Assembly (NCBI GenBank): GCA_964291315.2
Contig: OZ219753.1
Coordinates: 2,400,001 to 2,464,000, forward strand
Origin: Candidatus Poribacteria bacterium
Lineage (GTDB): Bacteria; Poribacteria; WGA-4E; WGA-3G
DNA length: 64,000 bases
Direction of reading: 5' to 3'
Of the stretch, positions 2,600-57,900 are shown piece after piece. Both the position numbers and the translations under genes were made by a program. The stretch's first letter is position 1. Each line of letters opens with the position of its first letter. Below the pieces are notes generated by a model that saw only the letters and a list, made by a program, of their open reading frames with translations, was not told where the DNA came from and searched no databases.

Positions 2600-2629
2600 T
2601 TGACATATCTTAACGACTTAAGGTATGAT
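2600..2629 (+). promoter_or_regulatory. Sigma70-type promoter with palindrome CTTAA-N4-TTAAG in the spacer
   Basis: TTGACA-18 nt-TATGAT; the spacer contains CTTAACGACTTAAG. Confidence 0.7.
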
Positions 2630-2708
2630 TAACGCAAAATCTTTTTTCAACTTCACGTTATATTACTTTTACAGAAACCGTTCACCGATAGCATCCGGTA
2701 CATTGCGA

Positions 2709-2840
2709 ATGAAAAGACACGCGAACATCCCATCGATCCAAATAGGTGCTCCTGAAACATCCACTTCCATGTGCCTAAGTGTGCGTAAAGATGAGTCTCT
2801 TTGCGTGCCTATACCAGATTACCCCCCCCGCTTTATGTAA
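2709..2840 (+). other. Putative leader ORF (43 aa, MKRHAN...PDYPPRFM) crossing the C8 tract
   Basis: ATG at 2709; codons GAT TAC CCC CCC CGC TTT ATG TAA. No clear SD sequence. Confidence 0.4.
2822..2829 (+). repeat. Poly-C tract (C8), leader locus 1
   Basis: gatta CCCCCCCC gctt. Confidence 0.95.
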
Positions 2841-2900
2841 GTTAAGTTCTTTATACAATCAGGTAGGCTCGGAAACGTTACTCCGGCTTACCGCCTTCGC

Positions 2901-2950
2901 GCCCGTGCCCACTCCGTTTTGGACGGAGCCCCTCAGCACGGGCTTTTTTT
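2901..2950 (+). terminator. Intrinsic terminator/attenuator 100 nt upstream of the DUF1156 methyltransferase
   Basis: Stem GCCCGTGC/GCACGGGC enclosing an inner stem CTCCGT/ACGGAG, followed by T7. Confidence 0.75.
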
Positions 2951-3049
2951 GTTGCAGTAGCATTTCACTACTGCAGGCTCCCCCGTTACACCCAACGCAG
3001 ACAATCCGTCAATTAAAGGCTGCCACCGCACAATCCATGGCAGGTTCAT

Positions 3050-5839
3050 ATGCCGTACCGCAAAAAACTGATTGAAACGAATATACCGCTCCGAGACATC
3101 AATATGGAGTCAGCGAAAAATACTTCCTCTAGCCCCGGTCATCCGGCAACGTTACATCGCTACTGGGCGCGCCGACCGCTTGCCGCATGCCGCGCCGTTG
3201 TCTTCGCCAGCTTTGTCGACGACCCCGCCGAATGCGAAGACGAGTTCCGAACTGAATACGAACAGAGCGCCGAACGCAACCGGCTCTACGGCATCATAAA
3301 GCGACTTATCGTCTGGCAGAACAGCAACGACGCAAACCTGCTGGCAGAGGCACGCTATGAGATCGCCCTCTCCGTCGCCCGCAATAACGGAGAAGACCTT
3401 GCCGAGTTTCGCGAGCGACACAATGCCGATCCAGACGCTGTTTTGCGGTATCTGCGCGAGCACGCCCCCGCTGTCTACGATCCCTTCTGTGGCGGCGGCT
3501 CGGTTCCGCTCGAGGCACAGCGCTTGGGACTGCGGGCCCGGGGCTCCGACCTGAACCCACTCCCCGTGCTCCTGAACAAGGCGATGATTGAGCTGCCACC
3601 GAAGTTCCACAATCAGCAACCGGTCAACCCGGAGGCGGACCCGATGCACATGTTCACAGACCGTGGCAAAAGCAAGGCTCGCGCGCCTTGGAGAGGCACT
3701 GCGGGCTTAGCAGCGGACATCCGCTACTATGGTGCGTGGATGCGTGAGCAGGCATACAAACGGATTGGGCATCTCTATCCGAAGGCAGAGTTGCCGGACG
3801 GTACTTCAGCCACTGTGGTTGCGTGGCTCTGGGCACGCACGGTGCTGTGTATTAACCCAGCGTGCGGTCTACAGATACCGTTGATAAAGACATTCCAGTT
3901 GTCGAAAAAGAGGGGACATGAGCGCTACATTAAGCCGGTGGTTGACAGAGAGACGAACACCATATCGTGGCAGGTGCAGACCAATCCTGACGGGTTGCCG
4001 GCGCCCACGGTGATGCGAACGGGGGCGTATTGTTGCGGTTGCGGCACCGCTGCGAAGCTGCCTTACGTCCGGGAGCAGGCAAAAACAGGCAGAATGGGAG
4101 AGACGATGACAACGATAGTCGCTGAGGGAGACAGCAAAAAAATATTCTTGGCACCCGCTGAAACACACGTCCAAATTGCCCAGTCTGCTGAGCCCGAACG
4201 AAGACCGCGTCTAGCAATGCCGAATAGCCCGACTTTGGTCAGTGGGCGTGGATACGGCATCACACATTGGCATCAACTTTTCACAAAACGGCAGTTGACT
4301 GCACTCAACACCTTCTCTGACCTATTAGTCGAAGTGCATGCCCGGCTCACTGAGGATGGCGCGCCCCCAGCGTATGCCGATGCTGTTTCCACCTATCTCT
4401 CCCTCGCCATCGGCAGAACTGCGGAGAGTCATTGCAGTTTTGCATGGTGGTACAATGGAGCGGAGCAGATCTCAAAAGTTTTTTCACGGCATGCGATTCC
4501 GATGAATTGGAGCTTTGCTGAAGCCAATCCGTTCTCTACATCAGCACAGAATTGGATAGGGCAAGTAGAGTGGGTTGCAAAGGGAGTAGAAAACCTGCCC
4601 GCATCTGTAAACCTTGGCCAGGCACATCAGGCGAATGTGTGCACCACGCCGCACGCCCAAGATGCACCTGTTATTATCACCGATCCGCCCTACTACGATA
4701 ACATCGACTACGCCACCCTCTCTGATTTCTTTTACGTCTGGCTCAGACCCCTCCTGCGCAACACCTACCCAGATCTGTTCGCTGGCATGACAACACCAAA
4801 GACGGAAGAGATCGTCGCCAGCTCACGATTCGAAGACCCTAAACAGCATTTTGAAGATTTGCTGAGCAAGTCGTTTCGGCAGATGCGCCGCTACTGTTCG
4901 GATAAATACCCAACGTCTATCTTCTATGCCTATAAACAGCAGGAAAAAGGACGGGGCGGGAAAACCTCTACCGGATGGGAGACGATGCTCGAGGCAACTA
5001 TCAACACCGGCTTTCAGATCGTCGCCACCTGGCCACTGCGAACGGAAAAAACCAGCGGTTTTAAGACAGAGATTAACGCCTTGGCATCTTCTATGCTGCT
5101 GGTGTGCAGACCGCGCCCCGAAGACGCACCCCGCAGCGACAGAAACACCTTCATACGCGCACTCGAAAACGAGATGCCCGCTGCTCTCGACCGACTCACC
5201 CGCATCGCAAACATCAGACCCGTCGACCTCGCACAAGCCGCCATCGGCCCAGGCATGGAGATCTATTCCCGCTATCGCAGCGTCACGCGCATCAGCGGCG
5301 AAGTCGTCTCCATACGAGAGGCACTCCAACATATCAACAACGCAATCACCGCTTATCGCGAAAAGATAATCGGGGAACTCGACGCAGAGACGCAGTTCTG
5401 CCTCACTTGGCTGCAGCAACACGGATACCTGCCGGGCAGCTTCGGGGATGCCGATGGACTTTCAAAAGCAAGAGGCGTTTATGTGCCAGCGATGCACGAC
5501 AGACTGCTCATTGTAGACCGTGGCAAAGTCCGTTTATTGAAACCGGAAGAATACGCGGATCGCGAGGAGCATCCAGAGATGTCAGCGTGGGAGGGGTGTC
5601 TGCGGATGATCTGGCATCTCTCGTTCACAGAGTTCAGCGGTGGCATTCAGGGGTGTGCAAGGGTTGCACGCTTGATGCGTGACTATCACAGTGCGAGACG
5701 TTTGGCTCTGGTGTTGTACAGCTACTATGAGGCGCTGGGGCACACGGAGGATGCTGCACGCTATAACTACCTTGTGACACAGTGGACGTATATCTGGCAG
5801 ACGATGGGCTCCGCAGAGCAGATAGAGGCGGACGTTTAA
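3050..5839 (+). CDS. DUF1156-domain adenine-specific DNA methyltransferase
   Basis: N-terminal HPATLHRYWARRPLAACRA; motif I YDPFCGGGSVPLEA; Zn-ribbon cysteines; motif IV TDPPYYDNIDY; TGWETML, TWPLRTE, PVDLAQAAIGPGM. Confidence 0.92.
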   Translation: MPYRKKLIETNIPLRDINMESAKNTSSSPGHPATLHRYWARRPLAACRAVVFASFVDDPAECEDEFRTEYEQSAERNRLYGIIKRLIVWQNSNDANLLAEARYEIALSVARNNGEDLAEFRERHNADPDAVLRYLREHAPAVYDPFCGGGSVPLEAQRLGLRARGSDLNPLPVLLNKAMIELPPKFHNQQPVNPEADPMHMFTDRGKSKARAPWRGTAGLAADIRYYGAWMREQAYKRIGHLYPKAELPDGTSATVVAWLWARTVLCINPACGLQIPLIKTFQLSKKRGHERYIKPVVDRETNTISWQVQTNPDGLPAPTVMRTGAYCCGCGTAAKLPYVREQAKTGRMGETMTTIVAEGDSKKIFLAPAETHVQIAQSAEPERRPRLAMPNSPTLVSGRGYGITHWHQLFTKRQLTALNTFSDLLVEVHARLTEDGAPPAYADAVSTYLSLAIGRTAESHCSFAWWYNGAEQISKVFSRHAIPMNWSFAEANPFSTSAQNWIGQVEWVAKGVENLPASVNLGQAHQANVCTTPHAQDAPVIITDPPYYDNIDYATLSDFFYVWLRPLLRNTYPDLFAGMTTPKTEEIVASSRFEDPKQHFEDLLSKSFRQMRRYCSDKYPTSIFYAYKQQEKGRGGKTSTGWETMLEATINTGFQIVATWPLRTEKTSGFKTEINALASSMLLVCRPRPEDAPRSDRNTFIRALENEMPAALDRLTRIANIRPVDLAQAAIGPGMEIYSRYRSVTRISGEVVSIREALQHINNAITAYREKIIGELDAETQFCLTWLQQHGYLPGSFGDADGLSKARGVYVPAMHDRLLIVDRGKVRLLKPEEYADREEHPEMSAWEGCLRMIWHLSFTEFSGGIQGCARVARLMRDYHSARRLALVLYSYYEALGHTEDAARYNYLVTQWTYIWQTMGSAEQIEADV

Positions 5840-28964: not shown

Positions 28965-30074
28965 TCATTGATTCTTTTTTATATTGAATGTGTAAGTAAT
29001 AGTAACCCGAGTAGCGATTGGCGTTCCATTCCATATAGCGGGATAGAAAGTGGTTTTCTTCAACGCCTCGGCCGCTGCTGCCTCCAATCCAAATCCGAGG
29101 GTTGTACGTTCTACGATGTCTATCGGGATACCCTCTTCATTGATAGTGGCTTCTAAAACGACCTCACCGGTCTTCTCTGCATTTTTTGCGTCCTCTGGAT
29201 ACACCGGATCAACTTTGAATTTGTACTGGGGCCCAGCAACCTCAATATGGGGATCGTAGTCGATGGCGCTCGCTTCGCCGACATGTTCTCGATCCTCCTG
29301 CACAATCCCGCCAGTTTGCACTTCCGCTTGGACTGCTCCATTACGAGTGGAGGCTTGGTGAAAATTCAATCCGAAGCGATACAGCAATTCCGAGTTCTCG
29401 AACGAGAACTCAATGCTCCCGAGTGCGCTCATCGTGGGTGACAACTCTATTTCTAATCCTGCTTCGCCGGTGAAAAAATTCTGCGCGCTGTTCACATGTA
29501 CTTTCTTGGTCGTAGAGACGTTATTCCACGCCTGTGTATAGAATAGCCCAAAGAACGGTTTGAGGTTCCATTCATAGCCTGTATCAAGCAGGTGTAAGAA
29601 GCCCATACCGCCTCGAAGTGCCATATTTATAGAGTGCAGCGGTAAGTTTCCAGTTCTACCAATGTTTGTGTACTGCGTCCTAAAACCGCCTGAGAGGAAA
29701 AATTTCAGCCCCGTCATATTCATGTCGTTGACGTTTAAGAATCGGAGATCTAGAGAAGGACTGGGTGCTATCTGATAGGGATTTTGGGTGTCGGTCTCAA
29801 AAAAGGAGATACCGGGCAGCAGCGACATCTTCAAGTCAGGACTGAAGGTATAATCGAGACTACCTAAAATTGTTTGCGCACTAAAACGAAACGGGGCTTC
29901 GGTGCGTTCCGGAGGCCTATAACGTTGGTATCCCATACCGACCGCCGTTTTCCCAGCTGGCGATCTATAAAAGCCTGTTTGTGCAGATGTGGGTACAGAA
30001 AACACTGCCAGCACGAAAAACATTGCAAACCCCAAAATTCGATGATTGAATCGCATAGAAAATTCTCTTTCCAT
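28965..30074 (-). CDS. Predicted outer-membrane beta-barrel fused to a TonB C-terminal domain
   Basis: Signal peptide; alternating amphipathic strands ending YRFGLNF; then PVYPEDAK..GEVVLEATINEEG..AAAEALKKTTFYPA..ITYTF. Confidence 0.75.
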   Translation of the reverse strand: MEREFSMRFNHRILGFAMFFVLAVFSVPTSAQTGFYRSPAGKTAVGMGYQRYRPPERTEAPFRFSAQTILGSLDYTFSPDLKMSLLPGISFFETDTQNPYQIAPSPSLDLRFLNVNDMNMTGLKFFLSGGFRTQYTNIGRTGNLPLHSINMALRGGMGFLHLLDTGYEWNLKPFFGLFYTQAWNNVSTTKKVHVNSAQNFFTGEAGLEIELSPTMSALGSIEFSFENSELLYRFGLNFHQASTRNGAVQAEVQTGGIVQEDREHVGEASAIDYDPHIEVAGPQYKFKVDPVYPEDAKNAEKTGEVVLEATINEEGIPIDIVERTTLGFGLEAAAAEALKKTTFYPAIWNGTPIATRVTITYTFNIKKNQ

Positions 30075-30272
30075 TTGTTATTGATAAGTTAAACATAGAG
30101 AAAATAAAAATGAAATTAGAGATGACACATCTGTCTTCTCTTATTAAAACCAACTTTATGCTGAGAAACCTCAGCAACGGCGCAATTTGCTGCTGGGGAA
30201 GCAGGCAAACAGGCGCAAAGTGGGTAACTCGGTGGATCGTGGACGTGTTTTCGGATAAACGGAATGAATTAC

Positions 30273-30419
30273 TTATTGTATGTGATGTAGGGGGGGGGGT
30301 GAATCGCTAAAAAGTAGGGTAGCAGCAGAACCTACGGAAGACAGAGACCGCTGCGCAGGATTAGTGTGACTAAATACCGCCGCCGTTTCGGATATGATGT
30401 TGATGGACAAATCTTTCAT
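30273..30419 (-). other. Putative leader ORF (48 aa, MKDLSIN...FSDSPPPLHHIQ) crossing the C10 tract
   Basis: ATG at 30419 preceded by GAGG; stop TAA at 30275-30273. Confidence 0.4.
30290..30299 (-). repeat. Poly-C tract (C10 on the minus strand), leader locus 2
   Basis: G10 on the + strand followed by TGAATCGCTAAAA. Confidence 0.95.
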
Positions 30420-30504
30420 GCGCCTCACTGATTAACACTGATAGGATTAACGGAGCCTATCAATGTTACCTTCGGATTCTCTTTTTTCACAATTTTCATT
30501 TTCA

Positions 30505-30576
30505 ATTATACCTTAAACTGTTAAGTATGTCAAGGACTTAATTTTTAATTATATCTTAACCGCAAATATAGGTCAA
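30505..30576 (-). promoter_or_regulatory. Two tandem consensus sigma70 promoters
   Basis: Minus strand: TTGACC-17-TATAAT (30576-30548) and TTGACA-17-TATAAT (30533-30505). The second spacer contains CTTAACAGTTTAAG. Confidence 0.8.
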
Positions 30577-30668
30577 CTCCTTTTAGAAAACGAAATAGGG
30601 GAATCTGTCAAAGAAGCACAGGAGCATCAACAGTATCTATTAGCAGTTCTTTCGAGAAATTACGCGGT

Positions 30669-32114
30669 CTAAACCGCATCAAACAGAGACGCTTCCATCG
30701 GCTTGCCTGTCCAAGGATTCGTCAACGGCGGCAACCTTAGCAGGACGTCCCAACGCTTCCCACAACTATAGTATTCCTCTATAGAAAAACACTGGATTGG
30801 ATCGTAAGTAGTGATCCCCATTTGGATCGCAGGCAGCTGATGTTGCCAACGCTTCTGAGCCGTCTGGGCATCGCGGGTGATAAGGATGCCCATCGCAGCG
30901 TTATGGTTGCGAATCGTTGTCTGCAGACGTTCATACTTCGACTTTTGCTGTCCCTTTGCCCCGGTGACCTGCACTAATATCGCTCGCTGATCCATATTGT
31001 CGGGTTTATCGCGCATCATGCCGAAGCCGTCGATGCCGTCGTCGGCTGTCTTCTTCGGGTTCGCCGCAAACCCATCTATTAGGGATACCGCCCAATCTTG
31101 AAATTTAAAGGGTTCTGTATCTGCAAGTTGATATGCTGTTGTGGTATCAATAGGCAAACCTAAGATGGGCATTGTAGGGAATCCATTGGGTTTGAGTCGG
31201 TAGTTATTGACGAGTTCTAAGGCGAAGGGTAGTATGTCTATGCCTATAGCGTATCTGTTGTGCTTTTTTGCTGCTTCTATGGTTGTGCCGCATCCACAAA
31301 AGGGGTCTAAGACGATGTGGTTAGGATTGGAGGAGGCTTTGATAATCCGTTCGTAGAGAGCCAGCGGCTTTTGCGTTGGATAACCCAGACGTTCATCAGA
31401 CATTGGATTAATGATCGGTATATCCCAGACATCGTCTACAGGTGTACCTTTTGGATGTGGCATGTATCTTTTACCTGAACTACTCACGATGCCTTCCTTG
31501 GCATACCCACTTGTTGGTTTATACGGGACTCTCACTTCGTCAATGTTAAAACAATAATCTACGGTAGCAGAACGAACATACCACAAAATAATATCATGTT
31601 TTCGCGAAAAATAGGTTTTAGACCTGCCTCCGCCTGTGTAATGCCAGACAATTTCGTTACGGAAATTCTTTTCATCGAATATAGCATCCATCACGAGTTT
31701 AAGGTAATGACTGGCATACGGGTCGCAATGCAGATAAACGCTCCCAGTCGGCTTGAGAATACGCTGCATCTCAAATAACCTTTCCGCCATATAAGAGGTA
31801 TAGGAAAGCATCTTGGACTTCGGAATACAGAGATCAAACGCTTGTATCACCTTTGACGCAGGATTCGCAATCGCAGACTTTACACGCTCCACGCGTTCGG
31901 CTGACGCATCGTCCCAGTCCCAGATATCATCAAACGCTTTTATCTGTGGATCAATATTCCGTAATCCGCTGCCTTTGAAGATGGTGTTGTAGGTGCGGTT
32001 GGAATTGAAAGGCGGGTCGAGGCAGATCAGATCTACAGCGTCCTCGGGAAAGTTGCTCATGATGTCGAGGCAATCTCCATAGTATAATGCATTTGTTTCG
32101 AAACGTAAGTTCAT
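30669..32114 (-). CDS. N6/N4 DNA methyltransferase (beta class) with a C-terminal Mrr-like/restriction-fold domain
   Basis: LDPPFNS, YLHCDPYASHYLK, YPTQKPLAL, LDPFCGCGTT; C-terminal FQDWAV..DDGIDG..VQV. Confidence 0.9.
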   Translation of the reverse strand: MNLRFETNALYYGDCLDIMSNFPEDAVDLICLDPPFNSNRTYNTIFKGSGLRNIDPQIKAFDDIWDWDDASAERVERVKSAIANPASKVIQAFDLCIPKSKMLSYTSYMAERLFEMQRILKPTGSVYLHCDPYASHYLKLVMDAIFDEKNFRNEIVWHYTGGGRSKTYFSRKHDIILWYVRSATVDYCFNIDEVRVPYKPTSGYAKEGIVSSSGKRYMPHPKGTPVDDVWDIPIINPMSDERLGYPTQKPLALYERIIKASSNPNHIVLDPFCGCGTTIEAAKKHNRYAIGIDILPFALELVNNYRLKPNGFPTMPILGLPIDTTTAYQLADTEPFKFQDWAVSLIDGFAANPKKTADDGIDGFGMMRDKPDNMDQRAILVQVTGAKGQQKSKYERLQTTIRNHNAAMGILITRDAQTAQKRWQHQLPAIQMGITTYDPIQCFSIEEYYSCGKRWDVLLRLPPLTNPWTGKPMEASLFDAV

Positions 32115-32399
32115 ACAGCAAATCTCCTCTGCATCAAATGTGTTGTTAGATGTCGTTTTCGGGGATGCCTCTCTCTTTCTAGGCGTGTCGTCTCTGGTAG
32201 ACAGTGTGTTGCCTGCCGTCCCTGATTAGGTCGGACGCAAAGACTTAGGTAGGATTTACGCAAAGATAATAGAACAGTAGAAATAAGCGCAATGCGAGCG
32301 AAGGGATGCCCGCGCGAAGACACCTGATAATGTATGTTCGCGTAAGTTTTGTTGGAAATAGTGAGGGAATAATCGAGATGTGTTAACTTTAAGTTAAAT

Positions 32400-32540
32400 T
32401 TAGCGGGGGGGGTAATAACCGATTGTTAAAGCCGATGCATTGACGAAAGACAAGAAGAAGTTAGCACTCCACAAGGCGCAGCCTCGGAGAGTTTTTCGCT
32501 TTACTTTTTTATCTGTGAAATTAACAACTCGGTTATTCAC
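32400..32540 (-). other. Putative leader ORF (46 aa, MNNRVVN...TIGYYPPR) crossing the C8 tract
   Basis: GTG at 32540; ends TAT TAC CCC CCC CGC TAA. Confidence 0.4.
32405..32412 (-). repeat. Poly-C tract (C8 on the minus strand), leader locus 3
   Basis: Minus strand tatta CCCCCCCC gct, the same flanks as locus 1 (atta-C8-gct). Confidence 0.95.
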
Positions 32541-32667
32541 TGTTGCTCGTTATCACTTTCAATGTAGAATGCTTAGGAGGTCACTTTCGCTTTAAAAATT
32601 CTTGTTTAGACGTTTTTAGGGACATTTAGAGTTTGCTGTGAAGTAGCAGAGATGTTTTGTATCTACA

Positions 32668-33462
32668 TCATTTATTGTTTCGTTGTAGGCGTTTTATTTC
32701 AGCTAATGCCTCGGCGAGCTCTGCGTCGGCTTGTTGTCGTGCTTTTGCCTCTGCTGCTGCCCGGGCGTCGGCTTGTTGTCGTGCTTTTGCCTCTGCTGCT
32801 GCCCGGGCGCCGGCTTCAGCTGCCCGGGCGTCGGCTTGTTGTCGTGCTTTTGCCTCTGCTGCTGCCCGGGCATTGGCACTTCTAATCTGTTGCCCCGAAG
32901 GCTCCAGCCACACCGAACGAACAGGATCATAAAATCCCAGGCGCCCCGCACGCTCTCCTAACTCTAAACCCAGCACAAGCGACGGCAGCCGATCACCCAC
33001 AAATGCTATCTCTTCATACACGCCTTCCACAAGATGATACCCAAGAAAAGCAGGCAACACCTCACCATACGGATCGTAAATATAATACTCACGCACACCC
33101 AGCACCGATGCATACAACTCACGCTTCGCAGTCAAGTCGTGCCTATAGGTGCTTGGACTCGCCAACTCTAACACAAAGTCAGGCGCGTGTCCCTCTTCCC
33201 AGACCCGATAGGTGCGCCGATCCTTTTTGCTAACCCCGAAGACAACAAACACATCTGGCGACACCGATTTCCTGGGGTTCCCCTCCTCATAATACATCAT
33301 CAGGTTGCCAGAGACATATGCGTCGTTGATGTTTTGGAAGTGGTGCTTAAGCATCTGAATGCAGTCGATCATGAGGTTTCTGTGCTTGTCGGTCTCTGCC
33401 ATAGGTTTACCGTCCGATTCGGGATAGACGAGCGTTGGAGCGGCTTTTATTCCTCTATCCAT
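32668..33462 (-). CDS. Uma2 (DUF820) family PD-(D/E)xK protein with a C-terminal coiled-coil repeat
   Basis: YPESDGKPMAET, SPDVFVV, PDFVLELASPST, LGVREYYIYDP. Confidence 0.92.
   Translation of the reverse strand: MDRGIKAAPTLVYPESDGKPMAETDKHRNLMIDCIQMLKHHFQNINDAYVSGNLMMYYEEGNPRKSVSPDVFVVFGVSKKDRRTYRVWEEGHAPDFVLELASPSTYRHDLTAKRELYASVLGVREYYIYDPYGEVLPAFLGYHLVEGVYEEIAFVGDRLPSLVLGLELGERAGRLGFYDPVRSVWLEPSGQQIRSANARAAAEAKARQQADARAAEAGARAAAEAKARQQADARAAAEAKARQQADAELAEALAEIKRLQRNNK
32723..32869. repeat. Three identical 42-bp repeats plus one 21-bp variant in the Uma2 tail
   Basis: GCGTCGGCTTGTTGTCGTGCTTTTGCCTCTGCTGCTGCCCGG at 32723, 32765 and 32828; variant at 32807-32827. Confidence 0.95.
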
Positions 33463-57352: not shown

Positions 57353-57615
57353 GACCTTTATTCTCCTTTCTTATTCATACATTAAATATAGACAAGAAGA
57401 GAGAGGGAACAGAGATTACAGCTCCATTCTCTCCTAGCTACAAACTTATGCCGAGGATCCCCCTCAGCTCTCGATATTAAGTGTTAAATGACATAGCAAA
57501 CCTCTCTAATACGATATAATACTATAACGCAAAAAGCCACCAAAGAATAACAACATCTATTGTTAGAGGCGTGAATTTCATTCTTGCTATATTCCACAGA
57601 CAATGTGCTTATATT

Positions 57616-57795
57616 TTAGGGTAAATGGAACAAATTGCTTACCATACGTGAAGTTAAGGGGGGGGGTGAAACGACTAAAATTAACCCAACAGCAGGGCTT
57701 AGGCGATAGGATAAGCAACCAACGTGGAGAGCTTTGCCAAGCCCCTCTAACTTTCTGATTCTAATGCGAGTGTCCAAATGTTCCAGGTGGCTCAC
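57616..57795 (-). other. Putative leader ORF (59 aa, ...LILVVSPPPLTSRM...) crossing the C9 tract
   Basis: GTG at 57795, stop at 57618-57616; no clear SD. Confidence 0.3.
57658..57666 (-). repeat. Poly-C tract (C9 on the minus strand), leader locus 4
   Basis: G9 followed by TGAAACGACTAAAA, similar to the locus 2 flank TGAATCGCTAAAA. Confidence 0.95.
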
Positions 57796-57871
57796 AGATT
57801 ACAGATGACGCGCCTAACAGATCACTGGCGAATTATCTCCTTCCATATTTCCTATTACATCATATGTAGTA

Positions 57872-57900
57872 ATTATATCTTAAACCGCGCATCATGTCAA
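57872..57900 (-). promoter_or_regulatory. Consensus sigma70 promoter of leader locus 4
   Basis: TTGACA-tgatgcgcggtttaaga-TATAAT (17 nt spacer). Confidence 0.8.

Follow-up and report, generated by a model that had tools for sequence, protein, structure and literature searches.

The window considered here is a stretch of 64,000 nucleotides (nt) from the genome of an uncultured sponge symbiont, a Candidatus Poribacteria bacterium (GenBank assembly GCA_964291315.2, contig OZ219753.1, positions 2,400,001 to 2,464,000). The element in question lies on its minus strand, in the leader of a gene for an N6_N4 DNA methyltransferase. This leader contains a short upstream open reading frame (uORF) that ends in a run of eight cytosines (C8), followed by a long alternative frame that stops on the start codon of the methylase. 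We propose that it is a hypermutable leader ORF, in which the length of the C run would set the reading frame and, through it, determine whether the leader is covered by ribosomes and the methylase start reached.

Organization of the methylase leader

Four leaders in the window carry such a run and are numbered from locus 1 to locus 4, the methylase leader being locus 3 (Table 1). The 3′ end of its uORF reads ...GGT TAT TAC CCC CCC CGC TAA. The uORF is kept in all seven homologous leaders as MNNR(V/I)VNF..., with 42-47 codons ahead of the tract, and in the paralogue of locus 3 within the same genome (C4:1500959) it starts with ATG. A preliminary description of this DNA had reported a 46-residue uORF, the C8 run and a YPPR/atta-C8-gct context common to locus 1, all of which are found in the sequence. 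It had further described a +1 frame of 98 codons that is closed before the tract, reopens after it and ends on the methylase ATG. Here the closure (a TAA 21 nt upstream of the tract), the beginning of the frame after the tract (GCT AAA TTT AAC...) and the overlap stand, while the count is 97 codons. The junction is an ATGA at 32114-32111, in which the TGA of the long frame overlaps the methylase ATG (32114-32112), and the paralogue has the same junction. As had been stated, C7 or C10 brings the uORF into frame with the long post-tract frame, hence ON; C8 and C9 are both OFF. The first start codon that the +1 frame has of its own is GTG 32323.

In the 22 nt after the tract either OFF frame meets two TAA codons, and the ON frame meets no TAA. 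The same 22 nt contain a small hairpin, TTAAC-N5-GTTAA, the TTAAC and GTTAA of which are conserved in homologues. Over the 80 nt after the tract, with the C run excluded, the fraction of G is 0.05-0.07 and that of C 0.23-0.28, and the predicted stability of the post-tract leader fold resembles that of shuffled sequences (z 0.06).

Table 1. Features of the four leaders, in window coordinates
Feature	Position	Strand	Remarks
Locus 3, leader uORF	32400..32540	-	GTG at 32540, 46 codons, TAA 32402-32400 in the assembled C8 state
Locus 3, poly-C tract C8	32405..32412	-	Ends the uORF
Locus 3, post-tract ON frame	32111..32404	-	97 codons (GCT at 32404 to 32114) and TGA 32113-32111
Locus 3, stop-rich stretch gctaaatttaacttaaagttaa	32383..32404	-	Immediately 3′ of the tract
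Locus 3, candidate Rho loading region	32325..32404	-	G-poor, C-richer, unstructured RNA after the tract
Locus 3, methylase Shine-Dalgarno sequence GGAG	32124..32127	-	9 nt ahead of ATG
Locus 3, putatively gated gene, 481-residue N6_N4 DNA methyltransferase	30669..32114	-	PF01555, E 2.4e-51
Locus 1, leader	2600..3050	+	Promoter TTGACA 2600-2605 / TATGAT 2624-2629; uORF ATG 2709; C8 2822-2829
Locus 2, leader	30075..30533	-	Promoter TTGACA 30533-30528 / TATAAT 30510-30505; Shine-Dalgarno GAGG and ATG 30419; C10 30290-30299
Locus 4, leader	57353..57900	-	Promoter TTGACA 57900-57895 / TATAAT 57877-57872; C9 57658-57666

The four tracts of Table 1 are the only C or G runs of at least 8 in the window, which additionally holds two C7 runs. 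Matches to the C7 word number 13, against 4.65 ± 2.6 in shuffled sequence, and 13 is reached in 0 of 100 shuffles. All four read as C on the strand that is sense for the following gene and precede it by 215-305 nt; the orientation and, to within 1 nt, the distances are those claimed earlier. The post-tract frames of loci 1, 2 and 3 are long, at 81, 107 and 97 codons, and the longest at locus 4 has just 22. Locus 1 precedes a DUF1156 methylase gene and is the best-formed attenuator among the four, with an intrinsic terminator at 2893-2949 (plus strand; -23 kcal/mol, then T7) that lies 72-114 nt after the tract and inside the 81-codon frame. The 107-codon frame of locus 2 is followed by a TonB_C gene, and the gene downstream of locus 4 encodes a lamin-tail-domain protein.

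The upstream neighbour of the locus-3 leader is a Uma2-family gene (32668-33462, minus strand). Its product, a putative restriction endonuclease, has a C-terminus built of tandem AAAEAKARQQADARA-like units (32703-32900, minus strand), seen in both DNA and protein. Rfam at gathering scores gave no match at the four loci; its matches in the window were a cobalamin riboswitch (RF00174, 37492-37730, plus strand, 88.7 bits) and a tRNA.

Poly-C tracts across the genome

The genome (4.40 Mb in 4 contigs, GC 0.47-0.48) contains 3108, 510, 47, 45, 18 and 2 C/G runs of 5, 6, 7, 8, 9 and 10 nt, respectively, a distribution with a bump at 8-9. This makes 65 runs of at least 8, where the decay from shorter runs predicts a handful. 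Thirty of these tracts lie outside long ORFs and constitute the leader class, 28 lie inside DNA-methylase genes, and seven have no shared flanks. Six of the last seven are in frame inside long ORFs, which serves as an internal control against systematic miscalling of C8 in the assembly. Across all 65 tracts, ATTA stands before the run in 40 and GCT after it in 34. Clustering of the flanks gives a group of 22 leaders (including loci 2 and 4), a group of three (including locus 1), the pair formed by locus 3 and its paralogue, four multi-copy families of 8, 7, 7 and 6, and 10 singletons. The exact 15-mer ATTACCCCCCCCGCT is present in just one of the 40 relatives searched. The number of C8 words in these relatives (G001-G040, all of one genus) ranges from 0 (G016, 3 contigs) to 197 (G003), a range that comes either from true gains and losses within the switch repertoire or from an assembly-dependent treatment of homopolymers.

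Matches of at least 10 of 12 positions to TTGACA-N16-18-TATAAT are found ahead of 24 of the 30 leader tracts and of none of the 35 others; the distance from the end of the -10 box to the tract is 132-257 nt, and in 22 of the 24 it is 159-219 nt. In all 30 leaders a start-initiated ORF of 34-65 codons, mostly 38-44, ends at the tract; dinucleotide shuffles give 3.9 such cases on average and never more than 9. With each subfamily reduced to a single representative this is true of 17 of 17, and the shuffle mean is 2.4. The start ATGAAAG is conserved in the large leader family, with GAGG ahead of it in several copies. The longest post-tract frame is also longer than in shuffled sequence: its median length is 79 codons over 26 leaders, where shuffles give 33.9 ± 5.2, and 67 codons over 15 subfamily representatives, where they give 35.0 ± 6.9; the observed value is reached by 0 of 500 shuffles in either case. 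Seven of the 30 leaders are in frame in this assembly. Terminator-like hairpins occur in 11 of 26 leaders, at 37-117 nt beyond the tract and invariably within the long frame, and G drops to 0.10 across the 40 nt that follow the tract.

The run is C on the sense strand in all 30 leaders and never G. Mutability alone does not require such an orientation, and its uniformity may point to a role for the RNA or for proline codons. The downstream genes that were examined encode lamin-tail-domain, LamG-like, FGE-sulfatase, TonB-dependent receptor and TonB-like proteins, a DUF1156 methylase, DUF499/HEPN and DUF4007 proteins and N6_N4 methylases; four belong to no family. The preliminary description had suggested a genome-wide device, with long open frames that would be unlikely by chance. 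The biases of strand, position and gene class and the comparison with shuffled sequence bear this out. That the long frame extends to the gene start holds at loci 1 to 3 and does not hold as a genome-wide rule.

Several short-leader variants were also seen. At C4:330232, C4:775135 and C4:2769968 the tract is about 66 nt before the ATG of an FGE-sulfatase gene, and at C4:2223563 it is 141 nt before it. These genes carry signal peptides, a CTGTG-N6-CACAG hairpin is conserved just ahead of the Shine-Dalgarno (SD) sequence, and the ON frame runs directly into the gene in three variants and ends 13 nt before the ATG in the fourth.

Other roles for the conserved leader segments were considered and set aside. 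A structured, riboswitch-like RNA received no support from RNAalifold, which gave no consensus on 18 leaders (uORF, tract and 45 nt more), and the post-tract RNA of locus 3 and its paralogue folds no more stably than shuffles. Pairing of the C run with an SD sequence or with G runs would need a G-rich partner, and none was seen consistently. The copies are not paired in inverted orientation, as the ends of insertion sequences or inverted-repeat pairs would be.

Frames are kept open while the peptide is free to change

Comparison of paralogous leaders reveals mismatches that are spread evenly over the three codon positions, with 94/103/85 in the uORFs and 146/133/137 in the post-tract frames. 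The same is seen between the homologous leaders of two sister genomes, G076 and G066, which differ by 21/22/25 substitutions at 174 sites each. The methylase genes behind locus 3 and its paralogue serve as a control and give 65/37/109. Four indels, of 9, 15, 12 and 15 nt, separate the leaders of G076 and G066. Locus 3 differs from its paralogue by an indel of 6 nt within the uORF and by one of 183 nt beyond the tract. The post-tract frame of the paralogue is open across this 183-nt insertion, giving 158 codons, and ends ...RRFAV-TGA on the methylase ATG. No Pfam family matches the leader products of 97, 158 or 231 residues. The 231-residue product, which is in frame in G076, has two matches among 5.8 billion proteins, namely itself and a relative of 237 residues.

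We read flat codon positions in a preserved frame as probable selection for the open frame, that is, for translation as such, and for neither a peptide nor a folded RNA. This agrees with the earlier suggestion that the device acts through leader translation.

Variation of tract length

A search for the locus-3 leader in 65 genomes of the genus, that of the window included, found it in seven other genomes, with matches that span the tract in four. The tract is C9 and in frame in G076, where a 231-codon ORF ends 4 nt before a signal-peptide gene. It is C9 and out of frame in G066, C8 and out of frame in G013, and C15 and C11 in G074. The 237-residue public protein, which reads ...FYPPPPRFNCEL, may be a C9 in-frame allele of the G013 lineage.

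Variation is also visible in public contigs. Logan contigs from four runs were aligned to 29800-33000; being contigs and not reads, they give the presence of an allele and not its frequency. Run X2 has an extra base (C9) at the 32405 tract, at depth 2421/17433 in 3 contigs, and C9 beside C10 at the 30290 tract (2348/5861). These are two of just five indels in 3.2 kb, and they occur in one of the four runs. The contigs of run X1 agree with the C8 and C10 of the assembly, X1 being possibly the source sample and so non-independent. The length variation expected of the phase-variation device that the preliminary description had proposed is present, both in public contigs and between species.

Leaders diverge fast. 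BLAST of the locus-2 leader against 64 sister genomes gave no match at E 1e-5, and the architecture shared with G004 and G003 is visible by ORF analysis only. Of the 16 exact-C9 tracts in G004, 11 show a uORF of 35-56 codons together with a single long frame, six of the 11 with a consensus promoter.

The same module inside methylase genes

The 28 intragenic tracts belong to a unit of about 27 nt, CTTATCA(C/G)AGATTA-C8/9-GCTT, that is found inside four families of methylase genes; the three that were scanned are Eco57I/MmeI-like, N6_N4 and MmeI-like. The unit is antisense in three of the families and sense in one, and the families that it splits have 8, 6, 7 and 7 copies (examples at L001:2993-3000, L003 ~3012-3020 and L004 ~2980-2987). 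All 28 tracts are out of frame by one step, a C8 needing -1 and a C9 needing +1. The two halves of the split genes nevertheless show an excess of third-position differences between paralogues, 74/52/161 and 86/78/254 in family A. This family has 532 fused public homologues at E 1e-10 or better, the best of which are 59-64% identical and about 1050 residues long; in the four fused homologues that were read, the tract-bearing segment is missing at the junction. Scoring of the 8000 candidates that share most words gave no in-frame family-A allele with an identity of more than 64%. Some intragenic tracts are in frame in sister species.

These 28 tracts fit directly the kind of contingency locus known from other bacteria, in which a poly-G/C run shifts the frame of the gene that contains it, and the earlier statement that the device does not work by frameshifting the gene itself fails for them. 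None of the 28 copies is ON in this genome, and the short unit lies in unrelated genes in both orientations.

A proposed leader switch set by reading frame

The architecture suggests a cassette with four parts in a row: a promoter, a uORF of about 42 codons that is translated, the poly-C run and, after it, a long alternative frame. Through slipped-strand changes the run would set the frame of ribosomes that initiate at the uORF. With C8 or C9 at locus 3 these ribosomes would stop at 32402-32400 or within five codons after the tract, leaving about 290 nt of G-poor, unstructured leader RNA bare. Bare leader RNA would lead to an early end of transcription, by Rho-dependent polarity at locus 3 and at intrinsic terminators in many sister leaders, and few ribosomes would get to the methylase start. 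With C7 or C10 ribosomes would cover the whole leader as far as the TGA on the methylase ATG and hand over to the methylase gene. The outcome would be methylase expression that is ON or OFF at random and heritable. The involvement of Rho is suggested by the composition of the RNA and by the presence of a rho gene, the score of which exceeds the cut-off. Translation of the uORF and frame-dependent expression of the methylase are likewise deduced from sequence, and we give the whole reading a probability of about 0.6.

A number of observations weigh against this reading, most of them at locus 3 itself. The uORF there has a GTG start without an SD sequence, where the copies of sister species start with ATG and carry GAGG or AAGGA 13-15 nt upstream of it. 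A search of 32000-32750 gave no sigma-70-like promoter, and so no match behind the Uma2 gene, the paralogue having a candidate in TTGCAA-17-TACAAT. A hairpin scan gave no convincing intrinsic terminator at locus 3, and at the paralogue only a hairpin of -7.1 kcal/mol. The methylase has its own GGAG, with no predicted structure beyond that of shuffles to occlude it, and the internal GTG 32323 could start a 70-residue ORF in the ON frame at any tract length. The alleles seen at the locus-3 tract are C8 and C9 only, both OFF. Across the leader class, the two shorter post-tract frames close no earlier than in shuffles. About 15 of 29 leaders have a long frame that extends to the next gene's start, overlaps it or fuses with it, and in the others this frame ends short. 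Paralogous leaders are non-independent samples. Finally, MutS and MutL are intact, so that slippage would proceed without a boost from loss of mismatch repair.

The poor SD sequence of the uORF and the internal GTG had both been named in the preliminary description as weak points, correctly; its choice of locus 3 as the clearest case does not stand, given the GTG start and the lack of an SD sequence, a promoter match and a convincing terminator. The locus-3 leader has lost 183 nt relative to its paralogue and to sister species, and it may be a weakened copy of the cassette. Better examples are locus 1, with a promoter, a uORF and a strong terminator inside the long frame, and locus 2, with a promoter, an SD sequence and an ATG.

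Alternative readings

Constitutive recoding would make the C8/G8 run a site of RNA-polymerase slippage or of a +1 ribosomal shift, which yields a fixed, small in-frame share, so that the tract would be a dosage device. This would suit the 28 module-bearing methylases, all one step out and yet with both halves under purifying selection, the absence of a closer in-frame allele of family A from the candidates scored, and the in-frame lengths of 7 or 10 shared by locus 3, its paralogue and the three copies of the locus-1 type. The length of homologous tracts is not fixed, however, but ranges from 8 to 15, with the C9 of G076 in frame; length varies within contigs; and seven of the 30 leaders, together with several intragenic tracts of sister species, are in frame. 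To our knowledge, slippage on C/G runs of 8 is not established as an efficient recoding signal. We regard recoding as unlikely.

A related thought is that CTTATCA(C/G)AGATTA-Cn-GCTT is a portable module, copied in either orientation into unrelated leaders and into linkers of the four methylase families, with a dedicated readout by regular RNA-polymerase slippage or by a factor that recognises the flanks. Such a readout would account for 28 of 28 methylase genes being one step out although maintained by selection, against seven of 30 leaders in frame. We hold it to be distinctly unlikely.

The uORF and the long frame could also be a phase-variable gene for a small protein, of 143 residues when in frame, with the methylase expressed independently from its own SD sequence. 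The frame is indeed open across the 183-nt indel and in other species, the methylase does have its GGAG, and gene callers annotated the in-frame versions of 231 and 237 residues. The flat distribution of substitutions against the 65/37/109 of the control, the lack of a Pfam family, the two matches in 5.8 billion proteins and the occurrence of one leader type before unrelated genes all speak against a functional peptide, and make this a very unlikely account.

Hardly more credible, and if anything less so, is phase variation of the promoter type, of which the Bordetella fim genes are an example based on a C run. The run would then lie in or beside a second promoter, its length would tune initiation and the ORFs would be incidental. 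Many copies, here and in sister genomes, do have a TAAGT-like motif about 9-17 nt beyond the tract, and the flanks are conserved, as the ATTA and GCT counts show. A promoter element has no need of an ORF before it, yet 30 of 30 tracts close one of 34-65 codons; the consensus promoters are 132-257 nt upstream, no -35-like box is found at a fixed distance, and a TAAGTAA-type motif also gives stops in two frames.

The remaining two accounts have little to commend them. If the homopolymers were miscalled in sequencing or assembly the frame states would be meaningless, and a genome in four contigs suggests long reads, which miscall homopolymers, just as C8+ word counts of 0 to 197 among sister genomes might; against this, six of seven C8 runs without the module are in frame inside long ORFs, the X1 contigs agree with C8 and C10 (subject to X1 being possibly the source sample), and tracts, flanks and position are conserved across genomes. 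A proline-codon or EF-P sensing attenuator like mgtL/mgtP, in which CCC codons stall ribosomes according to physiology and not genotype, would draw on the PPP or PPPP that the in-frame run encodes and on the uORF-dependent Rho attenuation with proline codons described in one review (PMC12360218), and is just as remote, as tract lengths differ by non-multiples of three, which shifts the frame besides the proline count, and the downstream genes are unrelated to proline or Mg2+.

Relation to known systems

If leader translation is switched in the manner that we favour, an uncultured lineage of sponge symbionts would possess about 60 mutational switches, as many as classic host-adapted pathogens have, and about half of them would use a leader-translation readout known experimentally from one Streptococcus species. 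Homopolymers would join the repeats that such a readout can use, and DNA methylases and other defence genes would join its targets; switching of a methylase would alter the methylome and perhaps many genes at once. The leaders would be a natural case of frames kept open for the act of translation alone. For annotation, leaders and split methylases of this kind would otherwise be called pseudogenes or hypothetical proteins.

Contingency loci with poly-G/C runs, and phasevarions, are found in Haemophilus, Neisseria and Helicobacter. They are also described in Campylobacter jejuni, (10.1101/2022.11.09.515450). The tracts here share with such loci an excess of G/C runs of 8-10 in genes for surface proteins and restriction-modification, length change by slippage, and the ON and OFF frames that result. 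They differ in that the leader-class tract lies outside the gene it would regulate, in that its flanks are conserved as a module, and in that the mismatch-repair genes are intact. In Haemophilus influenzae lex2A/lex2B a repeat tract in a short upstream ORF governs the gene behind it, much as we envisage for the leaders here. That tract is a tetranucleotide repeat at a single locus, whereas the leaders form a modular, multi-copy family. The lex2A gene is listed among the repeat loci of H. influenzae (PMC2651432).

Attenuation by Rho that depends on a uORF is known from mgtA/mgtCBR and topAI-toiL, and Rho also reads out phase variation where DNA is inverted, in E. coli fim and C. difficile flgB (PMC12360218). 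The switch proposed here would resemble the former in that translation of the leader ORF decides whether Rho loads, and the latter in that a stochastic change of DNA is turned into ON and OFF by premature termination. The trigger here would be the length of a tract in the uORF, and not a metabolite or an inversion.

The closest precedent is in Streptococcus gallolyticus. At its pil1 and pil3 loci the number of repeats in a leader-peptide gene sets the stop of the peptide; with a longer peptide, ribosomes run into or beyond a premature terminator, which is thereby opened, and the downstream gene is transcribed more (Danne et al. 2014, PMC3894217). The preliminary description had put forward a candidate new system; the class of mechanism is already published. 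Shared with pil are a leader ORF with an internal simple repeat, the number of which sets the frame and the stop, and, in 24 of the 30 leaders but not at locus 3, a promoter match ahead of it; about 11 of 26 leaders here have a terminator that is likewise placed. There are also differences. Two loci carry the device in S. gallolyticus, against about 30 copies per genome here; the repeat there is GCAGA, here a homopolymer of C8-C15; the host is an uncultured sponge symbiont, and DNA methylases and other defence genes are among the targets. Locus 3 has no clear intrinsic terminator, its ON frame and those like it have 97-183 codons, and it ends in the ATGA overlap. The peptide is unconstrained here, and the pil mechanism is proven by experiment where ours is drawn from sequence. 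A literature search, with supplementary files outside its scope, turned up no paper that apparently describes the cassette in sponge symbionts. Homopolymer contingency loci and phase-variable methylases are textbook knowledge, and the leader-peptide readout is published for one organism and a pentanucleotide repeat. What is new here is the methylase as target, the ATGA junction without a terminator, a frame that is kept without constraint on the peptide, the strict use of C on the sense strand with a G-poor tail, and a module shared with 28 split methylase genes.

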